This document shows, in pieces, positions 1,690 through 58,600 of a DNA stretch of 64,000 nucleotides. The notes under the pieces were generated by a model that saw nothing but the letters and a program-made list of their open reading frames with translations, had not been told where the DNA came from and did no database searches. Position numbers and translations under genes: made by a program. How positions within the stretch are numbered: position 1 is the stretch's first letter; each line of letters begins with the position of its first letter. The DNA lies in NCBI GenBank assembly GCA_018268995.1, contig JAFDVL010000097.1, positions 4,395 through 68,394 of the forward strand. Direction: 5' to 3'. This stretch comes from Acidobacteriota bacterium (GTDB taxonomy: Bacteria; Acidobacteriota; Blastocatellia; RBC074).

Positions 1690-1998
1690 CACAAATTTTC
1701 AGCCCCTTCCTGACCTTCCTCATTTTCCCATTCAAGTTTTTCTATTTCCTGCTCGCTTACAGTAACGAGAGCAGCAGTTGAGCGGCCCAACGCGATTGTC
1801 ACATCCGGTTTGTGATGTTGAATTTCCTCAGTCAGTTTTGGTTCGCCTCAGCAAGTCAACTTAAGAAGTGCGTTCTTCCCCAGGCTGCCTCACCCAAACA
1901 GCTCACTAACTAAAGCAAAGCGCAGTTGTCATCCATTTCAATTGTCTTTGGCTGCGTGGGCGCATTCAACCAACTCAACTTCACAAGGAGATAGAATC

Positions 1999-4221
1999 AT
2001 GAAAAAACTCGTTCTCTGGTGCCTCAGCTTAATTATGACCTTTGGCGTTGCTCTCCCACCGTTTGCCACACAGGCTCAAACCTCTCGCAACGACGATGAA
2101 GAATCCAATCAAACACGCGTGCAGGGACGCATTCTCAAAACCTTTCAGGAAGCCGAACCGACAAAATCCGGCGCGCCACAGGCAGGCGCAAACGCTACGC
2201 CCACGCAAGGCCGCAAGCCGCGTCCGATTTGGGTCGAATCTGCCTTACAGCGCAGTCTGGATTTCCTTTCAAAACAGGATCGCACGACCAGCGAACCCGC
2301 TCCAGCCAATCCACGTGAGCGCAATGCCCGTGTTGATTTCGCTTTGGTCAGTGCTGAGCAGGATGACTTGGGTCAGACACACTTGCGACTGAATCAACTC
2401 CGCGATGGCGTGCGCGTATTTGGTGGCCAGGTTATTGCGCACCTTGATGCTAAAAATATGCGTGCTGTCAGCGGGCGCGAATTCGATGAATTCAATCTGG
2501 AAACCAAAGCGGGACTCAGCCCTGATCAGGCTTTGGAAGCCGCGAAAAATGCGTTGAAGTTCAAAGGTGAATTCGCTGAAGAACCCAAGGCAGAATTAGT
2601 TGTTTTGCCGAATGAATTTTTCAAAGGCGAAGAAGACAAAGGTGCAACGCTGGTCTATCACATCGAACTAAAAATCGAAGACGGAACCGATGCTACCGCG
2701 CATCATCAATATTTCATCAATGCCAAAGATGGCAGTGTGGTGTGGCATTTTGATGCGCTGCCGCACGGCACGGGGTACAGCCTGTACAGCGGCGCACAGG
2801 CAATCAATACGGAATCCGCTTTCAGCTTTCCATTCTTGAATTACCGGATGCGTGACACCTCGCGTGGCAATGCGGAAGTTCGGGATATGAATGGCAGTTC
2901 CTCCGGCAATGGAACGTTATTTCAGAAGAACCTGATTGACGTGTGGGGCAACGGCACGAACGCCAATGATGAATCTGCCGCCGTTGACGTTTTCTTTGGG
3001 ATGGCTCGAACCTGGGATTATTACAAGTACGTGCATGGTCGCGATGGCATTGATGGCGCGGGTTACAAAATGGTAGCGCGGGTGCATTACGGCTCCAATT
3101 ACAATAATGCGTTTTGGAATGGCACGAACATCACGTTTGGTGATGGCAACGGCACATCTTTTAGCCCGTTGGTTTCGCTGGATGTGGTTGCACACGAAAT
3201 CACGCACGGCGTGACAGAAAAGACGGCGGGATTGATTTACTCAAAAGAATCCGGCGCGTTGAATGAATCGTTCTCCGATATTTTCGGCACGATGGTCGAA
3301 TATTACTCTGGCATCAATCCTGATTACTTGATCGGCGAAGATTGCTATACGCCCGGAACCAGCGGCGATGCGTTGCGCAGCATGTCGAATCCGACGTTGT
3401 ACGGCGACCCGGATCACTACTCGAATCGCTACACTGGTTCTGGCGACAACGGTGGCGTGCATACGAATAGCGGAATCCCGAACAATGCCTATTACCTGTT
3501 GGCAATCGGCGGCACGAACGGCACCAGCGGAATTTCCGTGACTGGTATCGGACGGTTCAAAGCCCGCGCTATTTTCTACCGCGCTTTGACCACCTACCTT
3601 GGCCCCAGCAGCCGCTTCATTGATGCGCGTCGCTGGACGTTGCAAGCCGCCGCCGATCTGTATGGTTCAGGCAGCACTGAATACAACGCCGTCGCACAGG
3701 CCTGGCGTGCAGTTGGTATCCCGTACATCGTTTATGGCGCGATTCGTGCGAAATGGGATAGTCTGGGCGCGGAAACCGGATTCCTGGGAATGCCGACGAC
3801 CGATGAACTCAGCACAGCTTGCGGTGGTGGACGTTTCAATCATTTTGTTGGGGGATCAATTTACTGGACACCCGCAACGGGCGCACACGAAGTTCACGGC
3901 GCAATCCGCAGCAAATGGGCGAGCCTCGGTTGGGAATGCAGCTTCCTCGGCTTCCCGCTGACCGATGAATCCGTGACGCCGGATGGTATTGGTCGTTACA
4001 ACCACTTCCAGGGCGGTTCGGTTTATTGGACGCCTGCGACAGGCGCGCACGAAGTTCACGGTGCAATCCGCGACAAGTGGGCGAGTCTGGGTTGGGAGCG
4101 CAGTGCGCTGGGTTATCCGACCAGTGATGAACAGGCGTATGCCTCAGGCCGCGTCAGCAATTTTCAGGGCGGCAGGATTTATTGGTTCCCTGTGATCGGA
4201 ACAATTGTTGTGTATGGCTAA
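1999..4221 (+). CDS. Secreted M4 (thermolysin-like) zinc metalloprotease with three C-terminal LGFP repeats
   Basis: SD aaggag precedes ATG 1999, followed by the signal peptide MKKLVLWCLSLIMTFGVALPPFATQAQ. It carries the zinc motif VVAHEITHGV plus the third ligand region NESFSDIFG. The C-terminus has 3 repeats of WxSLG..FLGxPxxDE...GRxNHFxGGSIYW. Confidence 0.9.
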   Translation: MKKLVLWCLSLIMTFGVALPPFATQAQTSRNDDEESNQTRVQGRILKTFQEAEPTKSGAPQAGANATPTQGRKPRPIWVESALQRSLDFLSKQDRTTSEPAPANPRERNARVDFALVSAEQDDLGQTHLRLNQLRDGVRVFGGQVIAHLDAKNMRAVSGREFDEFNLETKAGLSPDQALEAAKNALKFKGEFAEEPKAELVVLPNEFFKGEEDKGATLVYHIELKIEDGTDATAHHQYFINAKDGSVVWHFDALPHGTGYSLYSGAQAINTESAFSFPFLNYRMRDTSRGNAEVRDMNGSSSGNGTLFQKNLIDVWGNGTNANDESAAVDVFFGMARTWDYYKYVHGRDGIDGAGYKMVARVHYGSNYNNAFWNGTNITFGDGNGTSFSPLVSLDVVAHEITHGVTEKTAGLIYSKESGALNESFSDIFGTMVEYYSGINPDYLIGEDCYTPGTSGDALRSMSNPTLYGDPDHYSNRYTGSGDNGGVHTNSGIPNNAYYLLAIGGTNGTSGISVTGIGRFKARAIFYRALTTYLGPSSRFIDARRWTLQAAADLYGSGSTEYNAVAQAWRAVGIPYIVYGAIRAKWDSLGAETGFLGMPTTDELSTACGGGRFNHFVGGSIYWTPATGAHEVHGAIRSKWASLGWECSFLGFPLTDESVTPDGIGRYNHFQGGSVYWTPATGAHEVHGAIRDKWASLGWERSALGYPTSDEQAYASGRVSNFQGGRIYWFPVIGTIVVYG

Positions 4222-4222
4222 A

Positions 4223-4294
4223 ATGTATGACAGGCAGCCTGCCTGTCGCTGGCTGAAAAGCCACTGCGGCGACAGGCGAGCCGCCTGTCGTACA
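4223..4294. repeat. Pair of GACAGGC-N5-GCCTGTC mini-palindromes (REP-like) downstream of the protease gene
   Basis: The two copies are gacaggcagcctgcctgtc (4229-4247) and gacaggcgagccgcctgtc (4271-4289). The outer arms atgtatgacagg and cctgtcgtacat can also pair. Related copies lie at 733-749 and 783-802. Confidence 0.55.
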
Positions 4295-4335
4295 TCAGGT
4301 GTTCTGTCTTAAATTCACTATTGTCCAATGGGGTT

Positions 4336-4404
4336 CAGGTTGAGAGTTCTCGCTTCAGGGGGTTGCGCCGATGGCAAAACGCTGAAGCGAGAACTCTCAA
4401 CCTG
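4336..4404. terminator. 23-bp perfect inverted repeat between convergent genes (bidirectional terminator or REP-like hairpin)
   Basis: caggttgagagttctcgcttcag (4336-4358) pairs perfectly with ctgaagcgagaactctcaacctg (4382-4404). The repeat sits 3 nt after the helicase stop codon. There is no clear U-tract on either strand. Confidence 0.45.
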
Positions 4405-4407
4405 ATT

Positions 4408-6510
4408 CTACGGTTCACTTGATTCTTCGAGAGGGGCAAGGACTGTCGTCAGCGAGCGCCCCTGAAATTGGAGCACAAAGTTCGCCTCATCGAATGCTGC
4501 ATTCACGCTTGCGCGACGGGCCTCAATCGGCAACTGATCCTGAAATCGTCCCAATTCAAACCAGCTTTCCATCTGTTTCCAGCGTCGCCGTAAACAAGCC
4601 TGAACTTGCGCACCCGTGAAGTTCAATTGACCGGACGGAACAATGCCGTTCACCGCCAAATACAAATCGTTGTAATCCTTGACGCGCACGCAATACAGCA
4701 TTTCCAATACATCGCCGAGCAACAATCCATATGCCTCACCTGAACAATGAAATACCCACGTCACAGCCCGTTCAGCATCGTTTTCAGCAGGTTCTGTCAC
4801 GAACGCGATGTCGTGCGGGGTTTTCGCCTGTGGTGCGCCGAGTATTTTAGCTACGGCTTGCGCGAGCGTCGGCGTCATCGGACGCCAGGCGGAACGGCGA
4901 TGTGGCAGTGAAGAATTGCTTGTTTGCGAAGCCTCGCGCACCATCAGTTTGCGCCCGGAAACGCGTGCCGATTGTCGCGCATGGCCGCCGAACAAGAAGG
5001 TGCCACCGGGCTGCACTGCGCGTTCGACCTCGCCAAGCTTGCGCCCCGTCTCTTCGTCAATCACGTCAATCGTCACGCGGGTAAGATCAAGCAGGTTCGT
5101 GTAAATTGCGCGCTGCTCAAACAACTCACTCCACGCCGCACCAGGCTTGAGCAGGCCGTTGGTCGTGGCCACGAAATAATTCTTCAATGTCAGATGCTCA
5201 ATGATTTGGTCGTACTGCGCTTTGGGTAGCAACGGCGCGCCGTGCAAATTGGCAAACAACCCGAATGCATGGTTGAGATCAATCTCACCGTATTTCGTTT
5301 GCTTGACGTATGAACAAAGCTGCTGCACGACGATTGAAGGGCGAAAAAAGTAATTTGATGGTTCGATAATTTCCCCAGCCTGCGCCGCCGCGACATAAAT
5401 CTGAAGCAGCACGCGTTCGGTTTCGTTGCGATGACAACAGATAACTGAGGTGCGCGCTGTGCGCCGATTGCCGCGTCCGATGCGTTGCAGAAAGGCGCTC
5501 AGATTTCCAGGCGCACCGATCAGCACAATCAAATCCACATCGCCGATGTCAATGCCAAGCTCAAGCGTCGAAGTCGCAAAACACAACGCGACTTCAGATT
5601 GTGCGAATTGCGTTTCGGCGTGGCGACGGACTTTGGCATCCAGGCTCGCGTGATGCACAAACACGCGGTCGCCAAATGGTGTTCCGTTGCGCATCTCGAA
5701 CGCCCACTGTTCGCATTCAGCGCGACTCTGACAAAACGCGAGCACTTTTTTGATGCCGCGCGATTTGAGTTCGGCGAAGAGGGAATGCAACGTCGCAACA
5801 CTTTCGAGTTCAACCAGTCCTGCGTCCAGCGCGCGCTGCCCGGCGACTTGAATCACGAGCGGATCGTTGAAATACCGCGCGGCAACGCTGGCCGGATCGT
5901 GAATTGTGGCGGACAGCGCGCAGTATTGCAGCGCTTCGTTCGTGATGTCGCCACGCGACAACGCATATCGTTTCAGCCGTCGCAGCCGATTCAGCAAAAT
6001 ACGCAACTGATCGCCGCGCGCCGTATTGTCGAAGATGTGCAACTCATCAATGACCACCGCGCGCAGGTCCTTCAGCATCCGGGGATGATTCGCCAGCAAT
6101 GAATCAAACGACTCCGGCGTCGTGATGAGCAGTGCAGGCGGACGCGATGAATTCAATGCAGGTTCATCGCCCGTTTTGACCTGCACCGTGAGCGCAAGCT
6201 TTTCGAGCGGTTGCTGCAACCGCCGCGCCAAATCGCGTGCGAGCGCCCGTGTTGGGACAATGTAGAGAATCGAAAGCTGCCGTAATGGTTTGAGATTTTG
6301 TTTGAGCGTTTCGAGGAGCGGGGCCAGCGCGGCTTCGGTTTTGCCGCTGGCAGTGGCGGAAACGAGGACGCAATTATGACCTTCGAGCAGCGGTGGGATG
6401 GCCTGTGTTTGAATCTCGGTGAAGCGCCCGAACCGCGCAAACAGCGCATCCCACGTGTGCGGCAGGCGAGCTTTCAAATGTCGTTGGTAAGCGTCTCTGT
6501 CATCCATCAA
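4408..6510 (-). CDS. Lhr-like superfamily-2 DExH helicase (BrxHI/SngC-like), 700 aa
   Basis: All SF2 motifs are present: Q motif FTEIQTQAIP, motif I SATASGKTEA, Ia VPTRALARD, II VIDELH, III LSAT, V ATSTLELGIDIG and VI QRIGRGNRR. A C-terminal extension of about 330 aa follows. This is the last gene of the 4-gene operon. Confidence 0.85.
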   Translation of the reverse strand: MMDDRDAYQRHLKARLPHTWDALFARFGRFTEIQTQAIPPLLEGHNCVLVSATASGKTEAALAPLLETLKQNLKPLRQLSILYIVPTRALARDLARRLQQPLEKLALTVQVKTGDEPALNSSRPPALLITTPESFDSLLANHPRMLKDLRAVVIDELHIFDNTARGDQLRILLNRLRRLKRYALSRGDITNEALQYCALSATIHDPASVAARYFNDPLVIQVAGQRALDAGLVELESVATLHSLFAELKSRGIKKVLAFCQSRAECEQWAFEMRNGTPFGDRVFVHHASLDAKVRRHAETQFAQSEVALCFATSTLELGIDIGDVDLIVLIGAPGNLSAFLQRIGRGNRRTARTSVICCHRNETERVLLQIYVAAAQAGEIIEPSNYFFRPSIVVQQLCSYVKQTKYGEIDLNHAFGLFANLHGAPLLPKAQYDQIIEHLTLKNYFVATTNGLLKPGAAWSELFEQRAIYTNLLDLTRVTIDVIDEETGRKLGEVERAVQPGGTFLFGGHARQSARVSGRKLMVREASQTSNSSLPHRRSAWRPMTPTLAQAVAKILGAPQAKTPHDIAFVTEPAENDAERAVTWVFHCSGEAYGLLLGDVLEMLYCVRVKDYNDLYLAVNGIVPSGQLNFTGAQVQACLRRRWKQMESWFELGRFQDQLPIEARRASVNAAFDEANFVLQFQGRSLTTVLAPLEESSEP

Positions 6511-6531
6511 AAGACCGCCTTTTGGCTGCCA

Positions 6532-7962
6532 TCAAAACCTGCCCAGCATCACTTTCCGCAATTCACTTACCGCTTGCGTCGCGCTGTAATCCACATGCGC
6601 AAAACACAAATCATAAATCTCCGTCGCCAAGCGAATCGTCTGCCGCAAATTGATGAGCCGCCCCTCCAAGCATTCCAGCAATCCTTGTGACACGTCCAAA
6701 AACTGCTCGCTGCGCTCATAGCCGTAGGCTTGCCGATGCAGCACATACAAGCGCGCCATCAAATCATCCAACGCAGCGGCATCTAAACTCGTCGTCAGCT
6801 TGATAATCTGGTCATCGCGCAACCAACGCTGATAGTCGAACGTGCTGGCCGATGGCGTGACGGCGAACATCACCAGCAATTGACTGCGATCCTGAAAACG
6901 AAAGGGCATTGAATTCTGCGTGTGATGCTGCAACTGCGCTTCGCTGAGCTTGCAATCGGCGCGCGACGCGAGTGCTGTGTACATCAACGCGCGAAAGAAA
7001 TTGTCGGCGCGTTCCTGACCGCGTTCGTTCAGCAGGCTGTAATGTTCTGATTCATCGAGCAACAATGCTAATCCAGCATAGCCCGCCTGCTGTGCGATCC
7101 ATCCCAAACCGCTGAGCAAATAACAATACTGATCCGCCGACGTGGTCATCATCGAAAGCGCGCGCAGCGGAAATTCTTTTTGTTTCGCAGGCATCGCCCT
7201 GCGCACGGCGCTGATGTAAACCTTCTCGCCGGAAATCCAATCCAGCAACGAATCCAATGCCTCACCTGGCTTTTCGCGTAGCAGCGAATAGTTGTACAAC
7301 GCCGCGCTGAATTCTGTGCCTTTGATCTTTTCCATCAGCGGAGCATAGATGTGCGCATCGCTCAGAATCCGATCAAACAACGGCACGAGCGTGCCAACAT
7401 CAGTCGAGTCGGGATAGCGCAAGTTGCGAATCAGCGAGTTGTAAATGCGTTGTGGACGATTCGGCGGGACTTCGCGCAGGTCGAGGCTGGTTTGCGCAAC
7501 GAGGAAGTTTTTTTCTAACGCCTCCTGTGCGGCCAATTCGAAGAAATGACTTTTGCCTTGTCCGTATTCGCCCAGGATGACCCGCACATCGCCGCCGTGT
7601 TCGGCGACATTATCGAAGGCTTGATGCAGACTGGCACGCTCTGCTTCGAGTCCTGCGCTCAATTCTCGAATGCGTTTGTGCGGCACGACACCGTAGCGCA
7701 ACGCTTCAATCGTGCGGCGCGCCGAGATTCGTTGTTCCTGTTCCGGCGTGCGCGCCACTTCGACACGCGGCTGAATGATGGGACGCGGCGGCGCAGTCGT
7801 TTTGGCGGCTTCGACGACGGTCAGCATATTCGTTTGCACGACGGCCCGAATGCCGTTATCAAAACGAACTGTTGCGTCGCGGCCTGCGTTCCGTAATTCC
7901 AGAATTAGCCCGCGCCCAAACACGGGATGAGTAACAATTGATCCAATCATAGTGAATCTCAA
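6532..7962 (-). CDS. DUF2791/BrxD-type P-loop ATPase with an N-terminal UvrD/PcrA-like Tudor motif, 476 aa (alternative ATG start at 7950)
   Basis: The N-terminus reads VTHPVFGRGLILEL...ATVRFDNG. It then has ARRTIEALRYGVVP, Walker A GEYGQGKSH and Walker B GLALLLDESE. It is a paralogue of the upstream gene. Confidence 0.75.
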   Translation of the reverse strand: MRFTMIGSIVTHPVFGRGLILELRNAGRDATVRFDNGIRAVVQTNMLTVVEAAKTTAPPRPIIQPRVEVARTPEQEQRISARRTIEALRYGVVPHKRIRELSAGLEAERASLHQAFDNVAEHGGDVRVILGEYGQGKSHFFELAAQEALEKNFLVAQTSLDLREVPPNRPQRIYNSLIRNLRYPDSTDVGTLVPLFDRILSDAHIYAPLMEKIKGTEFSAALYNYSLLREKPGEALDSLLDWISGEKVYISAVRRAMPAKQKEFPLRALSMMTTSADQYCYLLSGLGWIAQQAGYAGLALLLDESEHYSLLNERGQERADNFFRALMYTALASRADCKLSEAQLQHHTQNSMPFRFQDRSQLLVMFAVTPSASTFDYQRWLRDDQIIKLTTSLDAAALDDLMARLYVLHRQAYGYERSEQFLDVSQGLLECLEGRLINLRQTIRLATEIYDLCFAHVDYSATQAVSELRKVMLGRF

Positions 7963-7997
7963 ATAGTGATTGCCCTGGCGCTTCGCGTCTCCATCGC

Positions 7998-9281
7998 TTA
8001 ATATTCTCCACCTTGCGAACGACCGAGTTGTTCCGTCACGCCACGCACGACGCTCTGCACATTGTCGGGTTCGTAGATTCTTTCGCCGTCAGCTTTTTGT
8101 TCTGCCAGCATATCAATCAGCGATTTGACGAAATGTCGGCGATGACTCGTAGACAACAGCGATCCGCACGTGTCGGCCAATTGTGCGATGTTTTGTTTTT
8201 GCAGTTCGTGATTGAATTTCATGCCGTACGCCACTTCAAACACCCCCACCAATTTTTCGCCAATCAACCGCAACAACTCTTCGCCCGGATAATCCAGTTG
8301 ATCCAAACTGATTTGCACGCTGAACGGATTTTTGCGCGAGAATTTTACTTTGGAACTGATGCGCTGGCTCAGGGCTTCGTATTGCGGCGCGATGTTCGTG
8401 ACGAAATACGGTGGCACGGCATAGACGAACAACGTCGCTGGCAAACTCTCGCCCGCGCAACGATCAATCACTTCGCGCAGGTTGTCGCACGCGACTTTTT
8501 CGGTCTTCGATGAACCGATGCTGACCATCCGGTCGCCTTCATCAAACAGCAGCACGAGTCCCGCGTAGCCGAGTTCATGCACCATCTGCGACACCGAACG
8601 CAGCATCTTGAAGGCAACAGAACGATCAATGCGTTCGGTGATGCTGAAGGCGCGCACGTCTTTCAGCGCCACGCTTTCGCCGCGCATCCACGCGCCGATG
8701 TTACGCTTCGCTGCGCCGTTATCTTCGGCTACGGCTTTCAGATAAAAGTACACCGCGTGCCGGAACGACGGGCTTTCGATCTTGAAGCGCAGGATCGTGT
8801 CGAGCCACAGTTCGACGCGCTTGTCCAACCCGATGCTCGTCATCATCGTGTCAATGCCGAGCATTTTCATCGTCGTGAAAAAGTGGTTTTCCAGAAACGC
8901 TTCGATGCCTTGCGTGTCGGCGACATTCGGATCCGGGCTATGAAAAATCAGGTTGCTGATGACGGCTTGATAGACCTTCAGTTGATTGTCATACGGGCAT
9001 TCTTTCGGGCTGAGTTCGGTGCGGCTGACGACGTAGCCGTTGTCCCACGCAATGTCGCGCAGCCGATACAAAAAGTGCGACTTGCCGCTGCCATATTCGC
9101 CGACCACGAGCTTGAAGCTTGATCCGCCATCGTGCAAATAACCCTTCAAATACTCGCTTTCGAGCGTGCCGAGCGCCGAATCCATCCCAACCGTATACGC
9201 TTCCAGCCCGCGCGTCGGCGGAATCCCCGATTCGCCCAGCTTGCGAATGATGTGCTGGGCTTCCTGTAGTGTGAGTTGCAT
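7998..9281 (-). CDS. DUF2791/BrxD-type P-loop ATPase, 427 aa
   Basis: A strong SD (AGGAGGattt) precedes the ATG. It has the N-terminal helix AQHIIRKLGESGIPP, Walker A GEYGSGKSH and Walker B GLVLLFDEGD. Confidence 0.75.
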   Translation of the reverse strand: MQLTLQEAQHIIRKLGESGIPPTRGLEAYTVGMDSALGTLESEYLKGYLHDGGSSFKLVVGEYGSGKSHFLYRLRDIAWDNGYVVSRTELSPKECPYDNQLKVYQAVISNLIFHSPDPNVADTQGIEAFLENHFFTTMKMLGIDTMMTSIGLDKRVELWLDTILRFKIESPSFRHAVYFYLKAVAEDNGAAKRNIGAWMRGESVALKDVRAFSITERIDRSVAFKMLRSVSQMVHELGYAGLVLLFDEGDRMVSIGSSKTEKVACDNLREVIDRCAGESLPATLFVYAVPPYFVTNIAPQYEALSQRISSKVKFSRKNPFSVQISLDQLDYPGEELLRLIGEKLVGVFEVAYGMKFNHELQKQNIAQLADTCGSLLSTSHRRHFVKSLIDMLAEQKADGERIYEPDNVQSVVRGVTEQLGRSQGGEY

Positions 9282-9295
9282 AAATCCTCCTGGTG

Positions 9296-9399
9296 GTCGG
9301 TGGCTGGTGGTCGGTGGCCGGTTATCCGTTTTTGGGCGTAGTCAGTCGGGTACTTGCTCTTGTGTACTGATCACCGATCACCGACCACCAGCCACCGAC
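9296..9399 (-). promoter_or_regulatory. Intra-operon hairpin (21-bp perfect stem, 62-nt loop) abutting the SD of the first ATPase gene
   Basis: gtcggtggctggtggtcggtg (9296-9316) pairs perfectly with caccgaccaccagccaccgac (9379-9399). The arms are built from GGTGGYY heptamers. In mRNA sense the 3' arm is followed directly by caccAGGAGGatttATG. Confidence 0.5.
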
Positions 9400-10262
9400 T
9401 ATTTCTCAAAATACAAATCCCTAATAAACGCCCCTTCGGTTGCGCCAGTAGCTAAGAAAATGGCTTTGCTGGAATCAGCACCGACATCAATCGTTGCCGT
9501 GCCGAGGTTGAGGCGATGGCCTTCGTGCGTGAGTTGCTGGTGCTGGCGCAATTTCAGCATGTCATAAGCGAAATGGGTTTTGGGATAGTCTACAAAACGG
9601 CCTTTGTTCGGGTCTTTGCGAAAGGCGAGCGGTTGGCGCACGATGACCAGTTCGCGGAAGACTTCGAGGATCGAAATACGTGTCCCCATTTTTTTATCCG
9701 AGAGCTTCAGCACGCGCACATAAGCTTCGTACAATTCCGCCAGAAGTTCGGCGTAATCTACTTTGCGTTCGCAGATGTCCTTGTACGCCTTTTGATAGGC
9801 GCTGACGACTTTCTCGACCTCCAACTTGATGGGTTTGGTGGCCAGTTGCCGCGAAAACGTGATTGAGACCTGTTTCTTGCGCAGGTCAGGTTCGACGAGG
9901 AACAATTCGGCAATCAATTTATTCGGCGGCCCGTCCAGCGTAATGCCGATGGTGCTGAAGGCTTCGCGCAAATCACGTGCAAAGGTAAACTCCAATTCAG
10001 CCAGATTTTCATCCGCAACGTCGCGCAACGCTTTGATCAGGTCGGTGTAGTTGTTGGGCAACGCAACTTCTTCAGGGGCATTTTCCAGCAGCGCGGTCGC
10101 TTCGTGCAGCGCCACTGCATTATTATGTGGGTCTTTAAGTGCGCGTTGCGCCTGATCCAACGGCTTGATGACGGCTTGGCGCACTTTCACTTCTCCGGCC
10201 AGTTGGCGACGAACTTCTCCAAGCCCCACCGCCAACGCGGAAACGTCCGCTGATTCACTCAT
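9399..10262 (-). CDS. Hypothetical protein, 287 aa, first gene of the ATPase/helicase operon (no domain recognised)
   Basis: ATG at 10262 is preceded by the SD AGGAGaaagcaaa. The listed longer ORF start at 10367 has no SD. The protein has a helical N-terminal third and a mixed alpha/beta C-terminal part ending ...GATEGAFIRDLYFEK. Confidence 0.65.
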   Translation of the reverse strand: MSESADVSALAVGLGEVRRQLAGEVKVRQAVIKPLDQAQRALKDPHNNAVALHEATALLENAPEEVALPNNYTDLIKALRDVADENLAELEFTFARDLREAFSTIGITLDGPPNKLIAELFLVEPDLRKKQVSITFSRQLATKPIKLEVEKVVSAYQKAYKDICERKVDYAELLAELYEAYVRVLKLSDKKMGTRISILEVFRELVIVRQPLAFRKDPNKGRFVDYPKTHFAYDMLKLRQHQQLTHEGHRLNLGTATIDVGADSSKAIFLATGATEGAFIRDLYFEK

Positions 10263-10377
10263 TTTGCTTTCTCCTATGTTGATTGTTGCTATAAAAAATC
10301 GGGTAAGTCTAAGCTGGAAATAGCCGAACACGCAAATTTTCGGGCAGGCCCTCCGCAGGGCCACCACAATTCGCTGA

Positions 10378-10406: not shown

Positions 10407-10448
10407 CTCTGCTTATTGCCTCAGTAAATATTGGTTTCTGTAGTTTTT

Positions 10449-12248
10449 ATGTCATCGAATCACATTCGCAATTTCTCTATCATCGCTCACATTGATCACG
10501 GCAAAACGACGCTTTCAGATCGCTTGCTGGAAGCTACTAATGCGCTTGAAGCCCGCGAAATGTCGGAACAGGTGCTGGACGCAATGGATCTGGAACGCGA
10601 ACGCGGCATCACGATTAAAGCGCACGCTGTGCGGTTGAATTACACAGCCCAGGACGGCAAAGATTATGTGCTGAACCTGATTGACACGCCGGGACACGTG
10701 GATTTTTCCTACGAAGTTTCGCGCTCCCTTTCGGCCTGTGAAGGCGCGTTGCTGGTCGTGGATGCTTCGCAAGGCGTCGAAGCGCAAACGCTGGCGAATA
10801 CTTATCTGGCGATTGATAACAACCTCGAAATCATTCCCGTTCTGAACAAAATTGATTTGCCCGGTGCTGAGCCGGAAAAGGTGCTGGAACAAATCGAACA
10901 CGTCGTCGGGCTTGGGGTTCATAACGCGGTGCAGGCGTCCGCTAAAAATGGCATCGGCATCACTGATATTCTGGAAGCCGTTGTGCGCGACATTCCGCCC
11001 CCCGCTGGTTCTGTTGATGCACCTCTCAAAGCGCTGATCTTTGATTCATGGTTTGACGCCTATCGTGGTGTGATCGTGATGGTGCGCATGATTGATGGCG
11101 AGTTGAAGCGTGGCATGAAGATTCGTTTGTGGGCGAAAGGCACAACTCACGAAATCGAAGATTTGGGTGTGTTGACGCCGAAGCCGCGCCCGATTGATCG
11201 TTTGCAGGCAGGCGAAGTGGGCTTCATCGTTGCCAATATCAAGACTGTTGCAGACGTGAGCATCGGCGATACCGTGACGGAAGAAAAACGTCCCACGGCA
11301 GAACCTTTCCCTGGCTTTCAGGAAATCAAACCGATGGTGTTTGCCGGGCTATATCCGACCGAGCCGAATCAATACGAAGAGTTGCGCGATGCACTGGAAA
11401 AATTACGGCTCAACGATGCGTCATTCTTTTTCGAGCCCGAAGTTTCTGCGGCGTTGGGCTTTGGTTTTCGCTGCGGCTTTCTTGGCCTCTTGCACATGGA
11501 AATCGTGCAGGAACGATTGGAACGCGAATTCAATGTTGACCTGATTACAACGGCTCCGGGCGTGCGCTATCGCGTGACTGACACAAAAGGCGAAGTCCAC
11601 GAAATTGATAACCCCTCAAAATGGCCTCCTGCGGGAAATGTGGCCAAAATCGAAGAGCCGATTATTCAGGCGATGATTATGACGAATGACGAATTCGTCG
11701 GAAACATTCTGGCCTTGCTCGACGAAAAGCGGGGAATTCAAAAAGGCTTTGATTACATCACGCCAACGCGATTGTTATTGACCTACGAAGTTCCGCTGAA
11801 CGAAATCGTGTTGGATTTTTATGATCGCCTGAAATCTGTTTCGCGCGGGTACGCTTCGCTGGATTATCATCTGGCGGGTTACCGGGACTCGAATCTGGTC
11901 AAGTTGGATGTGTTGGTTGCGGGCGAGCCGGTAGATGCCTTGTCTTTAATTGTCCACAAAGATTTTGCCTACACACGGGGCCGCTCGTTGGTTGAGAAGA
12001 TGCGGACGCTGATTCCACGGCAAATGTTTGAAGTGCCGATTCAGGCCGCCATTGGTTCGCACGTGATCGCGCGCGAAACCGTCAAAGCAATGGGTAAAAA
12101 CGTGCTGGCCAAATGTTACGGCGGCGATATTTCGCGCAAACGCAAACTGCTCGAAAAGCAGAAAGAAGGCAAGAAGCGCATGAAACGCGTCGGCAAAGTA
12201 GAAATTCCCCAGGAAGCCTTTTTAGCTGTGCTGAAAGTCAACGAGTAG
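10449..12248 (+). CDS. lepA: Translation elongation factor 4 (LepA)
   Basis: It carries [28 protein letters not shown] and NKID GTPase motifs. The characteristic LepA C-terminus ...[25 protein letters not shown] is present. Confidence 0.97.
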
Positions 12249-12249
12249 T

Positions 12250-12335
12250 TTGTCATCAGTCACTGGTCATGTGTCATTTGTTTCTCTTCGTAAACAATGA
12301 ATGACACATGACCAATGATTAATGACCAATGATAT
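12250..12335. repeat. Heptad-periodic hairpin element between lepA and the next gene
   Basis: GTCA recurs every 7 nt (tttGTCAtcaGTCActgGTCAtgtGTCAttt), and the opposite arm has TGAC every 7 nt. The perfect 15-bp stem pairs tggtcatgtgtcatt (12264-12278) with aatgacacatgacca (12300-12314). Confidence 0.6.
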
Positions 12336-15660: not shown

Positions 15661-16620
15661 ATGAAATCAGCAAGCATCAGCCTTTTCGTTTGTTTTTGCC
15701 TTTTAGTAACTTCCTGTAGTCGAGCCAGCCAAAATGCACCCGTCTCCACGAATGTTGCATCTGGTGATTACCGCTTGGGAGAACCTACCTTGCAGGCTGA
15801 CTCAGACGGCCTTACCGGTGGCTCAAAAGTAATTGCTACAAAAGCAACGGCTCAGCCGGAGCAAGTAAAAGAGCAGTCAACGCAAATTTCTGAACCGCAA
15901 CCCACTGACCGCAAAATTATTCGCAACGGCGAATTCACAATAGAGTCCAAAAATCCCACTGAAGATCAGCGCAAAATCCAAGCCATCGCCGAATCCTTTG
16001 GCGGCTTTGTTGTGACCTCTGAGTTTCAGCAAAGCACAGCTTATGTCAGCACGGTTAGTGTGATCGTGCGCGTGCCTTCAGCTCAATTCCAAGCCGCAAC
16101 GGACAAGATTCGGGGTGTAGGCAGTCAAGTTTTGCGCGAAAAGATTTCTGGCAAGGACGTGACAGAAGAATACGTTGATCTTGAGGCACAGTTGCGCGCC
16201 AAAAAGGCATTAGAAGCGCAATTCCTTGAAATCATGAAACAGGCGCGCAAAGTGGAAGACGCGCTTTCAGTTCAGGAGAAACTTTCCGAAGTGCGAACAG
16301 AAATCGAACGGCTGGAAGGTCGTCGTCGTTATCTGGACAATCAGGCGACTCTTTCCACCATCAATGTTGGGTTGCAAACCCCAGCGCCTTTGGTGGCAGC
16401 CACGCAAACGGGCTTTTGGGCCAGTGTTAAGAATTCCTTTGGCGATGGCGTGGATGTGGCGGTTTCCATCGTGCTTGGGTTCATTCATTTCGTGATTGTG
16501 ATGTTGCCAGTGTTCGTTTTGATTCTGCTGCCAGTGGGATTGCTTTTACGTTATTGCTGGCGTCGGTTTGGTTGGCAACGATTCTTCAAGAAAGAACCGA
16601 GAGTTGAGGCGGAAGCTTGA
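15661..16620 (+). CDS. DUF4349 domain lipoprotein
   Basis: It has a lipobox (LLVTSCS). The motif DRKIIRNGEFTIESKNP, a coiled-coil middle region and a C-terminal TM segment (IVLGFIHFVIVMLPVFVLILLPVGLLL) are present. Confidence 0.75.
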   Translation: MKSASISLFVCFCLLVTSCSRASQNAPVSTNVASGDYRLGEPTLQADSDGLTGGSKVIATKATAQPEQVKEQSTQISEPQPTDRKIIRNGEFTIESKNPTEDQRKIQAIAESFGGFVVTSEFQQSTAYVSTVSVIVRVPSAQFQAATDKIRGVGSQVLREKISGKDVTEEYVDLEAQLRAKKALEAQFLEIMKQARKVEDALSVQEKLSEVRTEIERLEGRRRYLDNQATLSTINVGLQTPAPLVAATQTGFWASVKNSFGDGVDVAVSIVLGFIHFVIVMLPVFVLILLPVGLLLRYCWRRFGWQRFFKKEPRVEAEA

Positions 16621-16830
16621 CTGTGAAGGAGGGCGTGTGAGTTTTAGCGCCCTTACTGTCAGGCTTCTGCCAGGGGAACATGCCTTCTGTCAGGGCAAAA
16701 ACACGCTTTTACAGTCAGGCTTCTGCCAGGGCAAAAGGCAAAAAACACGCCCTTACAGTCGGGCTTCTGCCAGGGCAAAGGCAAAAAACACGCCCTCCTT
16801 ACAGTCGGGCTTCTGCCAGGGCAAAGGCAA
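16608..16830. repeat. REP-like element array: one forward half-site plus four tandem ~46-bp reverse-orientation units
   Basis: The forward half-site is ggcggaagcttgactgtgaaggagggcg (16608-16635). Units of the type ttacagtc(a/g)ggcttctgccagggcaaa(a)ggcaaaaaacacgccc start near 16653, 16709, 16753 and 16799. A single related copy lies at 13790-13816. Confidence 0.7.
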
Positions 16831-16838
16831 ATGCCGAA

Positions 16839-28052: not shown

Positions 28053-28165
28053 GTCATTGGTCATTGGTCATTCGTCCTTTGTTCTTGGCCAGTGGTTTTA
28101 TGGGGAGGAATAACCTCGTGCTGGCTGATGAATTCCGAAGGTAAAGGATGGATGACCAATGATGA
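28053..28165. repeat. Heptad-periodic hairpin element (GTCATTG repeats)
   Basis: The 5' arm runs gtcattg gtcattg gtcattc gtccttt gttcttg. The 3' arm is aaaggatggatgaccaatgatga. The stem is 10 + 6 bp with a 3-nt internal loop. It lies between the aminotransferase stop and the ROK start. Confidence 0.55.
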
Positions 28166-52253: not shown

Positions 52254-52625
52254 TTCAGCCTCAAAAGAGGGGTTTGACCATTTGGTTAGGGGGGAAGCGG
52301 CATATTGCGAGCTTGCCCCTCTATCTATCTCTTGTAAACGCGCCATCGGTAACAATAGCTTTCCTCACAATTCCGACACATTTGACTCGCCTCGAAGGCT
52401 GTTTTTCCTACACAACATTCAACTATGGGTGGATTCCGCCTGGAATTGACTGCCCATTCGTTCTGTTAGGGCTATGCCCTGCGTTGTGCCGTCCGCTGCA
52501 TCAATGCGGGCGGCGGTCTTCCAAATTTCCAGGTGTTCTGGCTTCTCCGACCGGGATTGGTGATAAGAAAAACAGAAATGTCGCGCATCACCCTTGTGCG
52601 CCCACAATCATTCAGGTTTTTGTTT

Positions 52626-55600
52626 ATGCGTAGCTTCTCCCTCACCCGTCCTCTCAAAATCGCATTCCTTGTTTTTGTGTCTTTGTTGCTGAGTCTTGCG
52701 GCCAGTGCGTTTACGCCGTTGGGCCGACGCGTGGCGGCTGGCATTTTGCCAGCTGCGCCTAAATTGAAAACGAGGACTTTCGGGACAACCCGATTGAACG
52801 CGCGACCTGCTCCTGCCCTGGACTTGCTGGCTGGACTGAATGGGGTTGGTTTAGAGGCGACAGGTTTGGCCGCCCGTCCCGCCGGATTGGCAGTGGTGCC
52901 CGTCGGACCGTTGGCAATCACGGCGTCCAGCACCGCCACTCAACTTACCGGCATCGCCAACCCGTTCAACGGTGTGGATGTCGGTTTCCGGGCGGCTCTG
53001 ACCTTTGCCGACCTCGCCGCAGTGCTGGGGAATTTCGACGGCACGCTGTTCAACTACCTCAACGCTATGCCGCACGACGCCATTCTGAAGTACCGTAGCG
53101 GTGCTGCCTCCCCAACGGGAGCGCTCGACGTGGGCGATTATTCGGCCCCGGTGCTGGGCGACCTGGACGGCGATGGCGACCTCGACCTCGTCGTGGGGGA
53201 AAACAACGGCACGGTGCTGTACTTCCGCAACACGGGCACGACGACCGCCCCGGCGTTTGCCCAGCAGACCGGCGCAGCTAACCCGTTCAATGGCATCAGC
53301 GTCGGCATGCATGCGGCTCCGGCGTTGGGCGACGTGGACGGCGACGGCGACCTCGACCTGATCCTTGGGGCGTTGTTCAACGGGCTGCGCTACTACAAGA
53401 ACACGGGAACATCGTTGGCCCCGACCTTCGTGCTGCAAACCAGCCCGATTACCGGTCTGGCGTCCAACAACAGCTACACGTCCCCGGCGCTGGCAGACCT
53501 GGACGGCGACGGCGACCTCGACCTCACCATCGGAAATGTGGACGGTGTTTTGCGGTACTTCAAAAACACCGGAACGGCGACCGCACCGGCCTACACCGAG
53601 CAAACCATGAGCCCTGGCTACCCTTTCCCTACCTTCAGCGTGGGGAATCTTGCCAGGCCCGCGTTCGGGGATGTGGATGGCGACGGCGACCTTGACCTCG
53701 TTGTGGGGAGTTATGATGCCGGTCCCATTGGCAGCTTTTACTTTAAGAACACCGGGACGGCGACCGTCCCCGCCTACACGCAGCAGCCCAACGTGTCCGG
53801 CCAGTTTTTCAATGAGATCGGATTCGTGTTCACTTTATCCCCGGCACTCGCGGACACGGACGCCGATGGCGACGTTGACATGGTCATGGGGAATTTCGAG
53901 GGAAAGCTGTTTTACTGCCAGGCGAACCGCTCGCCGGTCGTGGACAACGCGATTCCCGACCAGACACTCACTGGCCCGGGAACGCTCAGCTATGTTGTGC
54001 CGGCTGACCGGTTTCTAGATCGAGACCGCGATACCCTGACTTATTCCGCCAGGTTGACCAACGGAAATCCCTTGCCGACGTGGCTGAACTTCACCGCCGC
54101 CACACGGACATTCAGCGGCAACCCCAGCACCACCGCCGTGACACCGCTTCAGATTCGCGTGACGGCTGCCGACGGCGATGGCAGGACCGCCTCCGACGAT
54201 TTTCAACTGACTTTATCCGCCGTCAACGATGCGCCCGTGATCACGCAGGGAGCCTCAGTGTCAGTCACCATGTCTGAGGACGGCAGCCCGACGCCCTTCG
54301 GCTTAACGCTGAATGCCGCCGATGCTGATGGCGACACGCTCACCTGGAGTATTGCAACCCCGGCCATGAATGGCACCGCAACGGCAACGGGAATCGGCAC
54401 GTCGAAAGCGATTAGCTACACGCCGAATCCCAATTTCAACGGGCCGGACAGCTTTGCGGTGCAAGTTTCGGACGGCAACGGCGGCACTGACTCCATCACG
54501 GTGAACGTGACGGTTCAGCCGGTGAACGATCCACCGACGATGGTTTCAGCCGGAGGCCCTTACTCGATCCTTGAAGGACAGGGGGTAACTCTTTCCGCGT
54601 CCGCGACTGACCCCGATGGCGACACACTTAGTTACAGTTGGGACATCAATGGCGACGGCACGTTCGGCGACGCGACCGGGCAGAATCCGACGCTCAGTTG
54701 GACGCAACTCAGCGCGCTTGGGATCAACGACGGACTTGCGACGCGCAACGTCAAGGTGCGCGTCACTGATACTGCAAGTCCGGCGGTTGATTCGGGGGCC
54801 ACGACGCTGACGATCAACAATGCACCGCCGACGCTGATGCTCAGCGGGGCGTCTTCAGTATCAGTAGGTCAAACCTATACACTCAATCTTTCGCCGAACG
54901 ATCCTGGGCAAGACACCATTTCAAGCTGGACGATTAACTGGGGCGACGGTTCTTCCCCCCAGGTCGTTTCAGGAAACCCGTCGAATGTTACGCATTCCTA
55001 TCTTGCAACGGGTAACTTCACCATCAGCGCAACCGCCACCGATGAGGACGGCACATACGCCGCAGACAATACAGTAGCCGTCATGGTCACCTGCACCAGC
55101 AATCCCGTGGTCGTTAACGGCAATGACAGCGGCGCGGGCAGTTTGCGCCAAGCCATTACCATCGCCTGTCCGGGCAGCACGATCACCTTTGCGAATGGAA
55201 TTAATCTCATCACACTGACTTCGGGCGAACTGGTCATCAACAAGAATCTGACGATTCAGGGGCCGGGCGCGAATCTGCTGACCATTCAGCGCAGCACGGC
55301 GATGGGCACGCCCCATTTTCGTATCTTCGCTATCAGCAATGTGACAGCCACGATTTCCGGCCTGACCATGACGAACGGCAATGCGGATGGCGGCGGGGCT
55401 GGCTTCATAAATTCCGGCAACCTGACAGTTACTGACTGCCTGATCACAGGCAACACGACCAGTAACGGGGGCGCTGGTTTTGCCAATAAAGCCACGCTGA
55501 TGATGACGGGTTGTACGATCAGTAACAACAGCTCGACCAGCATTGGGACGGGTGGGATATGGAATCTGGGTGACGCTGCTCCCACCGTCGCGACATTGAT

Positions 55601-58600
55601 CAATTGCACCATCAGCGGCAATACAACCGCCCCCACCGCAGGCCAAACAGGCGGTGGCATTGATAATACCTCCGTTACTTTTCCCGCTACCGTCACCTTG
55701 ATTAATTGTACGGTTGCAAATAACACCGTTGGCAGTAATACGAATGGCGGAGGACTGTATAGCGGGAAGTTCGGCTCGTTTAATGCCAGCATCCAGCTCA
55801 AAAACACCATCGTTGCCAATAACACCGCCCCGCAAGTGCGGCAAGATATGGGCGGAACGATCACTTCGCAAGGCTTCAACCTAATTTCCGACACCAGCTT
55901 GATGGCAGTTGCAGGTGACCTACTTAGCACCAACCCATTACTTGCGCCTCTTGGTAATTACGGTGGTTCGACACCGACGCATCATTTGCTGCCCGGCTCG
56001 CCTGCGATTGACGCGGGCGGTGCGGCCAATGATCCCGTCAGCGGCAATCCCCTCACCACCGATCAGCGCGGCTTTGCACGTCCGGTTGATCTCAGCATTG
56101 CCAATGCGACGAACGGGAATGGCTCCGACATCGGCGCGTACGAAGTCGCTGCCAGCTCATCTGATTGTACGACTGCGCCCGCAAATTTGACGGCGTGGTT
56201 TCCGGCAGATGCCAATGCCAATGACATCAAGAGCGGCAACGTGGGCACGCTCAACGGCACGGCGATGATTGATACGTCTATTGCAGGACGTGTGGGCGCG
56301 GGGGCATTCAGTTTCCCCGGTCTCGATGCAGCGTATGTTTCCGTTCCCGACAATGCCTCGCTCAATGTGGGCACAGGCGATTTCTCGCTTGATGCGTGGA
56401 TCAAACTGAATGACGCCGATAAGGCACCCGTGCGCACGATCCAGGACAAACGGATCAATGCGGCCACTGGCGCACCGACGGGCTATCACTTCTTTGTCGC
56501 GCAGGATTTCCTGGGCATTCAACTCGGCGATGGCACCGGCTACAGCAATTTCGTTGCCACGACCGGCGATGTTGCCGATGGCAACTGGCATCACGTTACC
56601 GCGACCGTGGATCGGGATTCCACTACGGGCGGCAAACTCTATGTGGATGGCGCGCTCGTGCTGACGTTCAATCCGACCGCTCGCGCTGGCTCGCTCAGCA
56701 ACTCGGAAGAGTTTCGCATTGGTGGTCGCCATGCCATCGGCAGCGCGAATTTCAAAGGCTACATTGATGAAGTCGAACTTTTCACGCGCGTGCTGACACA
56801 GGCCGAAGTGTTGGCGCTTTCGGATGCGAGCTATGCGGGCAAAGGAAAATGCTACGCCAACCTCGCGCTCACGAAGACGGATAACAGCAACACCGCCGTC
56901 GCGGGCAACAACATCACGTACACGATTCAGATCACAAACAACGGGCGCAGCGATGTCACAGGCGCAAGCGTCACCGACAACCTGCCTGCCAGCCTGAGCG
57001 GCGCATCATGGACGTGTACAGGTACAACAGGCGCAAGTTGCACTGCGATGGGCAGTGGCAATATCAGCGACACGGTGACAATCCCTGCGGGCGGCAACGT
57101 CACCTACACCCTGCAAGCCATCCTCGACGCCAATGCCACCGGGATGCTGGAAAATACGGCAAGCGTCGCCGCGCCGAGCGGTGTGCTGGAGTTGGACGGC
57201 ACGAATAACAGCCAAAAGGACACCGATACGATTCTCATTCCGACGACCACCACGCCGCTGATGGCACAAACCCTCTGCGCGGGCGGTACGGTGCAGTTCT
57301 CGACCACAGCTTCCGGCAGTGGCCCGTTCATGTTTGTCTGGAAAAAAGGGACGACAGTGCTGATGAGCGGCATCACAAACAACGCCAATACGAGCATGCT
57401 GACGCTCACCAACGTGCAGGTAGCGGATAGTGATACCTATAGCGTCGAGGTCACAGGCGCGGCCAACGCGGCCCTGCAAAGCGCACCACTGATGGTCAAT
57501 GCGCTGCCACCAACGCCCATGATCAGCGGCAATCTCAGTTTCTGCACTGGTGGCAGCACGACCTTGACTGCGACCGGGACGGGTACGTTTATGTGGTTCA
57601 AGGACAACATGCTCATCCCCGGACAAAACAGCAACATGCTGACGGTGACGGAAGCAGGCAGCTACACCGTCAAAGTCACCGACGCCAATAGCTGTGCGTC
57701 GGCGACTTCCCAACCCGCTGTTGTCACGGTCAATGCGAACCCGGTGCCCATCATTGATGGCCCAACGGAAGTCTGCGCTAATGCGACCAACCTGAGCTTC
57801 AGCGGCAATGGCGGCGCGTCTTCCTATGCCTGGGAAATTACCGACGGCAACGGCTCCATTGTGGGTTCTACCACCAGTCAGTTCGTCAACATCACGGCGG
57901 GTGCGAGCGGTTCCTTCACCCTTAAACTGACCCTCACCAATGGCTTTGGCTGCCCGGCTTCGATCACCAAAGTCGTGACGATCAAACCAGTCCCGACCGT
58001 CAATCCGGTCACCCCTTCCGCGATTTGCAGCGGCAGCTTGACCAACATCGCGCTCACCGGGACGGCAGACGCGTCCTTCAGTTGGACGGCCAGTTTGCAC
58101 AGCGGCAATGTGACGGGCTTCAGCGGTGGGATGGGGGCGACCATTGCGCAAACCCTGACGGGCAGTGGCGTCGTCAAATACTCCGTCACCGCCACACTCA
58201 ACGGCTGTCCGAGCGCTCCCGTTGAGATTTTGCAAACCGTCAATGCCCAGCCCACCATCTCGAATCCAAGTGAGCAGATTGTGTTGCAGGGCGGCACGGC
58301 GACTTTTTCCGTCACGCCGGGGGGGACGCCCACGCCGACCGTGCAGTGGTTTGTCTCGACCGATGGCGGCACGACGTTCACGCCGCTCCAGGGCCAAACC
58401 AATGCGACGCTCACCCTCGCCAATGTCACGCTGGCGATGAATGGCAATCTCTATCGGGCGGTCGCCGACAATGGTTGCCAGCCCGCCACCAGCACCGCTG
58501 CACGCCTGACGGTCAATACGCTCAAAGTGGATGTGGGCGATCCGTTACTGTGCCTCTCGGCCAATGGACTGGTTGGCGTGACCGCGACGATCACCAATAA

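Follow-up and report, generated by a model that had tools for sequence, protein, structure and literature searches.

A four-gene ATPase-helicase cassette of Acidobacteriota and Chloroflexota, distantly related to Shango and BREX and a member of neither

Examination of a 64,000-nucleotide stretch of the genome of an Acidobacteriota bacterium (class Blastocatellia; assembly GCA_018268995.1, contig JAFDVL010000097.1, positions 4,395 to 68,394; the whole stretch is called the window below, and positions are counted from its first letter) revealed a cassette of four genes, g1 to g4, which is an undescribed and distant variant of the module formed by a BrxD/SngB-family ATPase and an Lhr-like helicase. 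It belongs neither to Shango nor to BREX (bacteriophage exclusion). The cassette codes for a protein of an unannotated family (g1), two paralogous ATPases (g2 and g3) and a superfamily 2 (SF2) helicase (g4), and its most informative feature is a Tudor domain of the UvrD/PcrA type carried by g3. The genes and the parts of g3 are the following.

9399-10262, minus strand: g1 open reading frame (ORF), 287-amino acid protein, first gene of the cassette
7998-9281, minus strand: g2 ORF, 427-amino acid ATPase of the BrxD/SngB family (PF10923, ORC/Cdc6-type AAA+) without Tudor domain
6532-7962, minus strand: g3 ORF, second BrxD/SngB-family ATPase, with an N-terminal Tudor domain
7813-7950, minus strand: Tudor domain of g3 (about 46 amino acids), from AlphaFold2 and Foldseek
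7723-7812, minus strand: variable Pro/Ala-rich linker between Tudor domain and ATPase of g3
6532-7722, minus strand: ATPase body of g3 (PF10923, 5.4e-31)
4408-6510, minus strand: g4 ORF, 700-amino acid SF2 DExH helicase of the Lhr/BrxHI/SngC type

The four minus-strand ORFs, their coordinates and the spacers of 117, 35 and 21 nt between them (g1-g2, g2-g3 and g3-g4, respectively) agree with the initial annotation, which had been made from the sequence alone, as do the Shine-Dalgarno sites (AGGAG 5' of g1, AGGAGG 5' of g2) and the divergent lepA gene at 10431-12248, whose product carries GTP_EFTU and LepA_C domains. Comparison with orthologues places the true start of g3 at the ATG at 7950 (protein start MIGSIV); for g4, the ATG at 6507 is the probable start. 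The Tudor domain of g3 and a hairpin occupying the 117-nt g1-g2 spacer were absent from the initial annotation.

Profile searches upheld the view that g2 and g3 are paralogous DUF2791/BrxD-type ATPases with intact Walker motifs. With PF10923 (BrxC/BrxD; cutoff 22.2 bits), g2 gave an E-value of 1.8e-49 and 169 bits over its full length, and g3 5.4e-31 and 108 bits, with a match beginning at amino acid 81. In PADLOC, g2 matched BrxD (1e-36) and SngB (4.7e-33), and g3 matched the same two models (1.6e-23 and 6e-18). Both proteins missed the NCBIfam BREX_BrxD equivalog NF033438 (129.1 bits for g2 and 80.6 bits for g3; cutoff 350 bits). Their mutual identity is only 23%, and they are therefore ancient paralogues. 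The Walker A motif was found in 102 of 102 distinct g2 copies and the Walker B motif in 100 of them; for g3 the counts are 87 and 82 of 89.

Orthologues hardly differ in the first ~45 residues of g3; a Pro/Ala-rich stretch of variable length and sequence comes next. The AlphaFold2 model of this N-terminal region is a barrel of five beta-strands (predicted local distance difference test score, pLDDT, 97.3), and Foldseek attributed it to the Tudor fold with a probability of 1.0. The lowest root-mean-square deviation (RMSD) and the highest identity were obtained with the Tudor domains of UvrD, UvrD1 and PcrA (RMSD 1.7-2.5 Å, 20-26% identity), with template modelling (TM) scores of 0.72-0.77 at an RMSD of 1.7-2.0 Å for UvrD1, UvrD and PcrA. 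The matched structures include UvrD1 of Mycobacterium smegmatis (9dqs), Escherichia coli UvrD (6yi2), PcrA (5dma), E. coli UvrD with an RNA polymerase lobe (7egs_B) and Thermus thermophilus UvrD with UvrB (7egt_B). The PcrA/UvrD Tudor family PF21196 was the top Pfam match, below its gathering threshold, in 13 of 20 g3 orthologues (E<1; best 0.013), and the remaining weak Pfam matches of g3 N-termini were also Tudor or SH3-type domains. A sequence search of the g3 N-terminus against PDB sequences returned nothing usable. All lineages examined, among them Chloroflexota, Fischerbacteria, Planctomycetota and Stahlbacteria, have the Tudor motif in their g3-type subunit; the Chloroflexota versions were found by direct inspection, a hidden Markov model built from Blastocatellia only being too narrow for them. 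Matches to the canonical BrxD and SngB models start no earlier than g3 residue ~80, and residue 15 of a real SngB aligns with g3 residue 85; the canonical ATPases are therefore without the Tudor domain. The Tudor domain of PcrA is likewise attached through a disordered linker, and it binds a beta-hairpin, the "helicase interaction motif", in RpoB and UvrB (PMC8318588). The strict form of this motif occurs nowhere in the six-frame translation of the window, which contains neither rpoB nor uvrB.

The product of g4 had been recognised as an Lhr/BrxHI/SngC-type helicase with the SF2 motifs, and the searches bore this out. It matched DEAD (2e-33) and Helicase_C (2e-17) in Pfam. In PADLOC it matched SngC (9.9e-65) and BrxHI (4.7e-78; amino acids 27-559 against model positions 22-550 of 698), the latter being similarity at the family level only. 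BLASTP against SngC gave 33% identity over the helicase core only (E 2e-28), and the best NCBIfam match was the ligase-associated DEXH helicase TIGR04121 (6.6e-65, 219 bits against a cutoff of 850). Among 75 copies, DExH was found in all, SAT in 74, motif VI in 71 and the TxSGKTE form of motif I in 68. About 330 amino acids extend beyond the SF2 core; the Pfam domain WHD_Lhr is on record for the g4 orthologue of one other locus (L043), and g4 of the window has no DEAD_assoc or WHD_Lhr match.

No match to g1 was found in Pfam, NCBIfam or PADLOC, and 34 diverse members of its family gave none either. Its AlphaFold2 model (pLDDT 84.8, predicted TM score 0.72) consists of a long helical N-terminal part (amino acids 7-104) and an alpha/beta C-terminal domain. 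Foldseek found no relative of the whole model in the PDB (best E 0.64, TM<0.25) or BFVD, and a sequence search against PDB sequences gave nothing usable. A profile search of 1.84 billion representatives nevertheless collected 620 clusters at E<=1e-3. Another search gave 272 close clusters, which come exclusively from Blastocatellia, Pyrinomonadaceae or other Acidobacteriota metagenome-assembled genomes (MAGs). With a family of this size, g1 is not the orphan that it was first taken for. A member of the family is always the first gene of the cassette, and even distant members (~25% identity) lie in the same four-gene arrangement. The accompanying remark that nothing in g1 is recognisable as TerB held: neither TerB nor SngA was matched by g1 or by any of 33 diverse relatives in Pfam and PADLOC, and hhalign gave a probability of 0.13% between the g1 family and the real 769-amino acid SngA of plasmid CP088401.

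Loci were collected with the g2 alignment, the divergent g1 alignment having no conserved stretch suited to a locus search, and gene order was scored in 162 loci with 105 distinct g2 sequences. All of them keep the genes on one strand in the order g1-g2-g3-g4, a constancy that extends over more than 100 genomes of soil bacteria, and 117 loci are complete. The incomplete ones are explained by contig ends, save a few frameshift-split copies, mostly in long-read assemblies, and one internal deletion variant. When 185,579 genomes, each representing one GTDB species, were scanned with g2 patterns, ~296 carriers were identified, which are Acidobacteriota, many classes of Chloroflexota and single Fischerbacteria, Stahlbacteria, Planctomycetota and Herpetosiphonaceae.

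The four genes diverge together and with the same order of conservation in both main phyla, g2 > g3 > g4 ~ g1. Identities between Acidobacteriota and Chloroflexota are 44-51% for g2, 33-42% for g3, 35-43% for g4 and 24-35% for g1, and within Chloroflexota they are 66-96, 50-94, 48-86 and 39-81%, respectively. Across Acidobacteriota, g2, the slowest-evolving subunit, is 77-97% identical. This co-divergence would fit an obligate complex. In one syntenic genome, g1 to g4 are 76, 97, 93 and 80% identical to those of the window, and the flanking genes 72-90%. Within Blastocatellia/Pyrinomonadales and within Chloroflexota the cassette is strongly conserved and looks vertically inherited. Among the matches listed, six Blastocatellia/Pyrinomonadales assemblies retrieved in a LepA scan were missing from the carrier list; since MAGs are incomplete, this speaks only weakly for a patchy distribution. 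In two independent assemblies of the same species (L041 and L042), comparison with the related locus L040 revealed an internal deletion that runs from the last part of g2 through the whole of g3 into the first part of g4; the cassette is therefore dispensable in that species.

The flanks of the cassette differ from genome to genome. Among the 257 proteins flanking 34 non-redundant loci, the recurrent Pfam families include PGK, PEP carboxylase, EPSP synthase and ABC transporters. PADLOC matches in the flanks are few and generic: one kinase-WD40 protein and one SNF2 helicase per set, ABC ATPases, GlgB, IscS-like proteins and a Fic protein. The sole defence neighbour seen is a CRISPR-Cas locus (DevR, Cas6, Cas1, Cas2, Cas4) beside one distant cassette, L040. 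The possibility had been raised that the block is a core-genome element lying next to lepA throughout the phylum. Its strong conservation and vertical-looking pattern agree with the first part of this proposition; adjacency to lepA is limited to the closest relative, and phylum-wide synteny with lepA is therefore refuted. The G+C content of the cassette (0.51-0.57) compares with 0.47-0.55 in the flanking 10 kb, without a sharp shift at the block boundaries.

The intergenic spacers of the cassette, mostly that between g3 and g4, are in many related genomes an insertion hotspot in which the four genes are left intact. Inserts were seen in the g3-g4 spacer of L001, L004 and L034, in the g2-g3 spacer of L066 and L068, and in L023, L089, L103, L062, L076, L031, L079, L090, L072, L100 and L109. 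Judged by eye from N-terminal sequences, they encode Uma2/DUF820-like, Rpn-like and PIN/VapBC-like proteins, a GNAT toxin with its antitoxin, a LAGLIDADG endonuclease, a DUF4143-type ATPase and a pair formed by an AAA protein and a DUF4435-like protein. A hidden fifth gene or effector in the gaps of the cassette was considered and rejected, the inserts being unrelated selfish genes.

Three further elements accompany the genes.

10306-10336, minus strand: promoter-like motif (TTTGCG ... TTAGACT) upstream of g1, recurring in the closest loci
9282-9398, minus strand: intercistronic hairpin that fills the g1-g2 spacer and ends at the g2 Shine-Dalgarno site
4335-4405, minus strand: terminal hairpin directly 3' of the g4 stop codon, in a region shared with the convergent protease gene

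The motif (A)TTTGCGC-N~17-TTAGACT is also found 5' of g1 in the closest Blastocatellia loci (L001, L003, L004, L005, L013, L014, L021, L034, L035 and L058). A sigma-70 consensus scan did not call it, so that its role can only be described as a putative promoter; the sigma-70 and terminator scans were at background level. A GTTC-N7-GTTC sequence, which we take to be the LexA-type box of Acidobacterium, was not visible by eye upstream of g1.

The hairpin of the g1-g2 spacer has a perfect stem of 20 bp (dG -55.8 kcal/mol, z = -7.7), and its arms are tandem units of ~7 nt placed opposite their own reverse complements. Comparable hairpins occur where g1-g2 spacers are long (L001, L004, L005, L009, L077, L080, L085, L086, L111). 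The unit varies by genome (ACGGTAG, TCATTAG, TTTCAAA, GGAGTCA, GGTGGYY), and the fold is always strong (z = -7 to -12). Because heptamer arrays also sit at other intergenic sites of the window (12300-12332 and 28053-28076), this hairpin probably belongs to a genome-wide class of intergenic repeats of these Acidobacteriota and is here by chance. In L036 (GCA_044222815.1), whose g1 protein is identical, a run of ~33 C interrupts the spacer hairpin at a place where the window sequence is normal; it is probably an assembly artefact.

The perfect hairpin reported as one boundary of the block is indeed present after g4; its stem measures 24 bp and not 23 (dG -51.4 kcal/mol, z = -11.5, 0 of 200 shuffles as good). 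No U-tract follows the stem, and we therefore describe it as a putative terminator only. Just 3' of the thermolysin-like protease gene (1942-4221), at 4230-4288, there is a second inverted repeat, with arms of 20 nt (85% complementary) and a T-rich tail; it stands back to back with the g4 hairpin and probably serves as the terminator of the protease gene. A search against Rfam matched no known RNA.

Elsewhere in the window, three head-to-tail copies of a 46-nt unit (16697-16831; 92% matches, Tandem Repeats Finder score 213, no Rfam match) lie between ORFs ending at 16620 and 16898. A giant ORF of 2404 amino acids (52533-59747) is found near genes for secreted proteins (penicillin amidase, NPCBM, a VgrG3-like C-terminal domain). 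PKD-type repeat domains are among the Pfam families of the window's large ORFs.

Regarding its function, we propose that the block encodes a self-contained four-protein NTPase machine. The g2 and g3 proteins would form a hetero-oligomeric, ORC/Cdc6-like assembly (ORC, origin recognition complex), which the Tudor domain of g3 would dock on a partner bearing a helicase interaction motif hairpin, most probably the beta subunit of RNA polymerase or UvrB. ATP binding and hydrolysis by the g2-g3 pair would then load or activate g4 at this place, on DNA or on an RNA:DNA hybrid. In the position occupied by the TerB protein SngA in Shango, g1 may act as a system-specific sensor, adaptor or regulator. 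A comparable activity has been proposed for BrxD, an ORC/Cdc6 AAA+ ATPase tightly linked to BrxHI that may load or activate this helicase (PMC12839542).

The reading that we prefer, with a probability of roughly 45%, is a Shango-like immunity that has become fixed in the chromosome, namely nucleic-acid surveillance at transcribing polymerases against invading DNA or phage. In its favour, the characterised relatives are anti-phage systems only (Shango), one distant cassette adjoins CRISPR-Cas, sister contigs carry the internal deletion, and the distribution is patchy at the phylum level, with sporadic occurrence in Fischerbacteria, Stahlbacteria and Planctomycetota. Several observations weigh against it. 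The flanking proteins of the 34 loci are metabolic or housekeeping, with no recurrent defence or mobile-element family, and the neighbourhood does not speak for a role in defence. No copy occurs in 2.9 million viral contigs, and plasmids carry only canonical Shango (~23% identical). No nuclease or other effector domain is encoded. The identity of g2 exceeds that of LepA in the same genome pair (97% versus 90%), which is unusual for an immune gene, and across the order g2 is 77-84% and LepA 72-79% identical among the matches listed. As for the Tudor docking, the eukaryotic PHF1/PHF19 Tudor domains are slightly better than those of UvrD/PcrA by Foldseek E-value, and g3 of the window scores 14-15.6 bits against PF21196, under the gathering score of 23.9.

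Much of this evidence would suit a genome-maintenance complex of the same architecture, which we hold to be possible, if tentatively so. Its targets would be the cell's own stalled transcription complexes, R-loops or lesions, with transcription-coupled repair or R-loop removal operating in desiccation- and UV-exposed soil lineages and with Shango and type-2 BREX as immune offshoots. The conservation of g2 at or above the LepA level, the vertical-looking pattern (flanking core genes of the syntenic genome diverge as much as the cassette or more), the lack of a defence-island or mobile context in the 34 loci and of viral copies, and the absence of a toxic effector all point in this direction. 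So do the best NCBIfam match of g4, a DNA-damage-response helicase, and the proximity of the g3 Tudor domain, by RMSD and identity, to the UvrD/UvrD1/PcrA domains acting in nucleotide excision repair and R-loop suppression (PMC8318588). Set against such a role are the overall rarity of the cassette and its scatter over unrelated phyla, the deletion variant found in independent samples of one lineage, the lack of an SOS-box-like motif visible upstream, the fact that every characterised homologue of the ATPase-helicase dyad belongs to an immune system and, weakly, the six assemblies without a listed cassette. A cellular, vertically inherited machine docked on RNA polymerase, in which an ORC/Cdc6-like hetero-oligomer loads an Lhr-type helicase at transcription complexes, is a reading to which we give slightly less weight. 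The Tudor domain might instead be a DNA binder or a tether within the complex that holds the C-terminal hairpin of g4, without any link to transcription. A motif of g4, VIDEETGRKLG (amino acids ~484-494, nt ~5030-5061; pattern V[IV]D[ED]xTGR[KR][LV]G), does resemble the PcrA-type motif [VIL]DxxTGE[VIL][VILT] and is kept in Acidobacteriota (a loose pattern matches 60 of 133 g4 proteins). Its critical Glu is however replaced by Arg, the motif is absent from the g4 of Chloroflexota, whose g3 keeps the Tudor domain, and it may be a beta-barrel hairpin common to Lhr-like helicases, so that we consider the tether improbable. Even less credit can be given to a remnant or detached accessory pair of a type-2/6 BREX whose core genes were lost or lie elsewhere. 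BrxD and BrxHI are indeed the best PADLOC matches, and the dyad is tightly linked in type-2 BREX (PMC12839542). The BrxD equivalog scores (129 and 81 bits against 350) are nonetheless low, PglW, PglX, PglY/BrxC and PglZ are missing from the 257 flanking proteins, and a four-gene unit with its own first gene, conserved across phyla, is not what decay would leave. An ordinary Shango with g1 as a divergent SngA is effectively refuted: the succession of accessory gene, ATPase and helicase and the matches of g2 and g3 to SngB and of g4 to SngC speak for it, but g1 and its 33 relatives lack any TerB or SngA match (hhalign 0.13%), there are two ATPases instead of one, the Tudor domain is absent from SngB, identities to SngB and SngC are only 23-33%, and the cassette is never found between insertion sequence (IS) elements, where Shango lies on 659 plasmids.

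As a minimal variant provided by nature, the cassette retains the ATPase-helicase core, while the TerB or BREX partners have been swapped for a different and widespread family. With g1, an unannotated protein family of ~620 representative clusters is defined whose genomic partners are now known. The added Tudor domain, with solved relatives that bind RNA polymerase and UvrB, suggests that these AAA+ ATPases may be helicase loaders brought to complexes of transcription or repair. Because g2 is so strongly conserved and the loci lie outside defence islands, the cassette also offers a way to ask if "defence-type" modules may become fixed machinery of the cell, and neighbourhood-based discovery methods would have missed it. 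If the cellular, RNA polymerase-docked machine were real, it would constitute a new bacterial pathway of transcription-coupled repair or R-loop surveillance and the cellular relative from which the ATPase-helicase modules of Shango and type-2 BREX derive, with the g1 family as a new fold acting as sensor.

Literature on DUF2791, BrxD, SngB/SngC and Shango yielded no description of the cassette, and a 2026 survey of BREX diversity describes no stand-alone cassette like g1-g4 (PMC12839542). Since the domain assignments were upheld and no published description was found, the cautious initial conclusion, an undescribed variant of an ATPase/helicase module for defence or nucleic-acid surveillance, stands.

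Among the closest known systems is Shango, in which genes for a PF10923 ATPase and an Lhr-like SF2 helicase also come after an upstream accessory gene on the same strand and no nuclease is apparent. The SngB model is matched by g2 (4.7e-33) and g3 (6e-18) and the SngC model by g4 (1e-64). A canonical Shango locus of an E. coli plasmid, in agreement with the published three-gene definition, consists of a TerB_N protein of 769 amino acids, an ATPase of 438 and a helicase of 731, between IS elements. Identities to the Shango proteins are 23-33% overall (26% for g3 and SngB). The cassette differs from Shango by the unrelated 287-amino acid g1 in place of the 769-amino acid TerB protein SngA and by two 23%-identical paralogues, one with a UvrD-type Tudor domain, in place of a single SngB; of the three Shango components, only the SngC-type helicase has its counterpart. 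Shango is moreover mobile: 659 plasmids, mostly conjugative, carry it between IS elements, and it also occurs in defence hotspots of Pseudomonas. The cassette, by contrast, is located on the chromosome among metabolic genes and shows far stronger conservation.

To our knowledge, it is not known how Shango and the BrxD-BrxHI dyad work. The dyad, which the initial annotation had linked to type 6 BREX, has been placed in type-2 BREX (Pgl) (PMC12839542), and it provides the best PADLOC matches (BrxD 1e-36, BrxHI 4.7e-78) as well as the same tight linkage of ATPase and helicase; two ATPases, the Tudor domain and a dedicated first gene set the cassette apart. In line with the initial remark that PglX, PglZ and BrxC-like genes are lacking, the window contains no further PF10923-like ORF, and no PglX/PglZ/BrxC-type family is among the 25 of 76 Pfam families listed for its 35 other ORFs. 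Of the features of type 2 or 6 BREX, no core gene was found within this scope, a BrxD at the equivalog level is missing, and a BrxHI-type helicase is present. With the Lhr and Lhr-core helicases, including TIGR04121, g4 shares the SF2 DExH core and may share a C-terminal winged-helix/beta-barrel region. It falls far below the equivalog cutoff of the ligase-associated DEXH helicase, has no ligase or metallophosphoesterase (MPE) nuclease as neighbour and, unlike Lhr helicases, is always coupled to two ATPases and g1. Finally, the N-terminus of g3 shares with the Tudor domains of UvrD/PcrA (PF21196) a five-strand barrel joined to an NTPase by a flexible linker; theirs is C-terminal on a superfamily 1 helicase, whereas that of g3 is N-terminal on an AAA+ ATPase.

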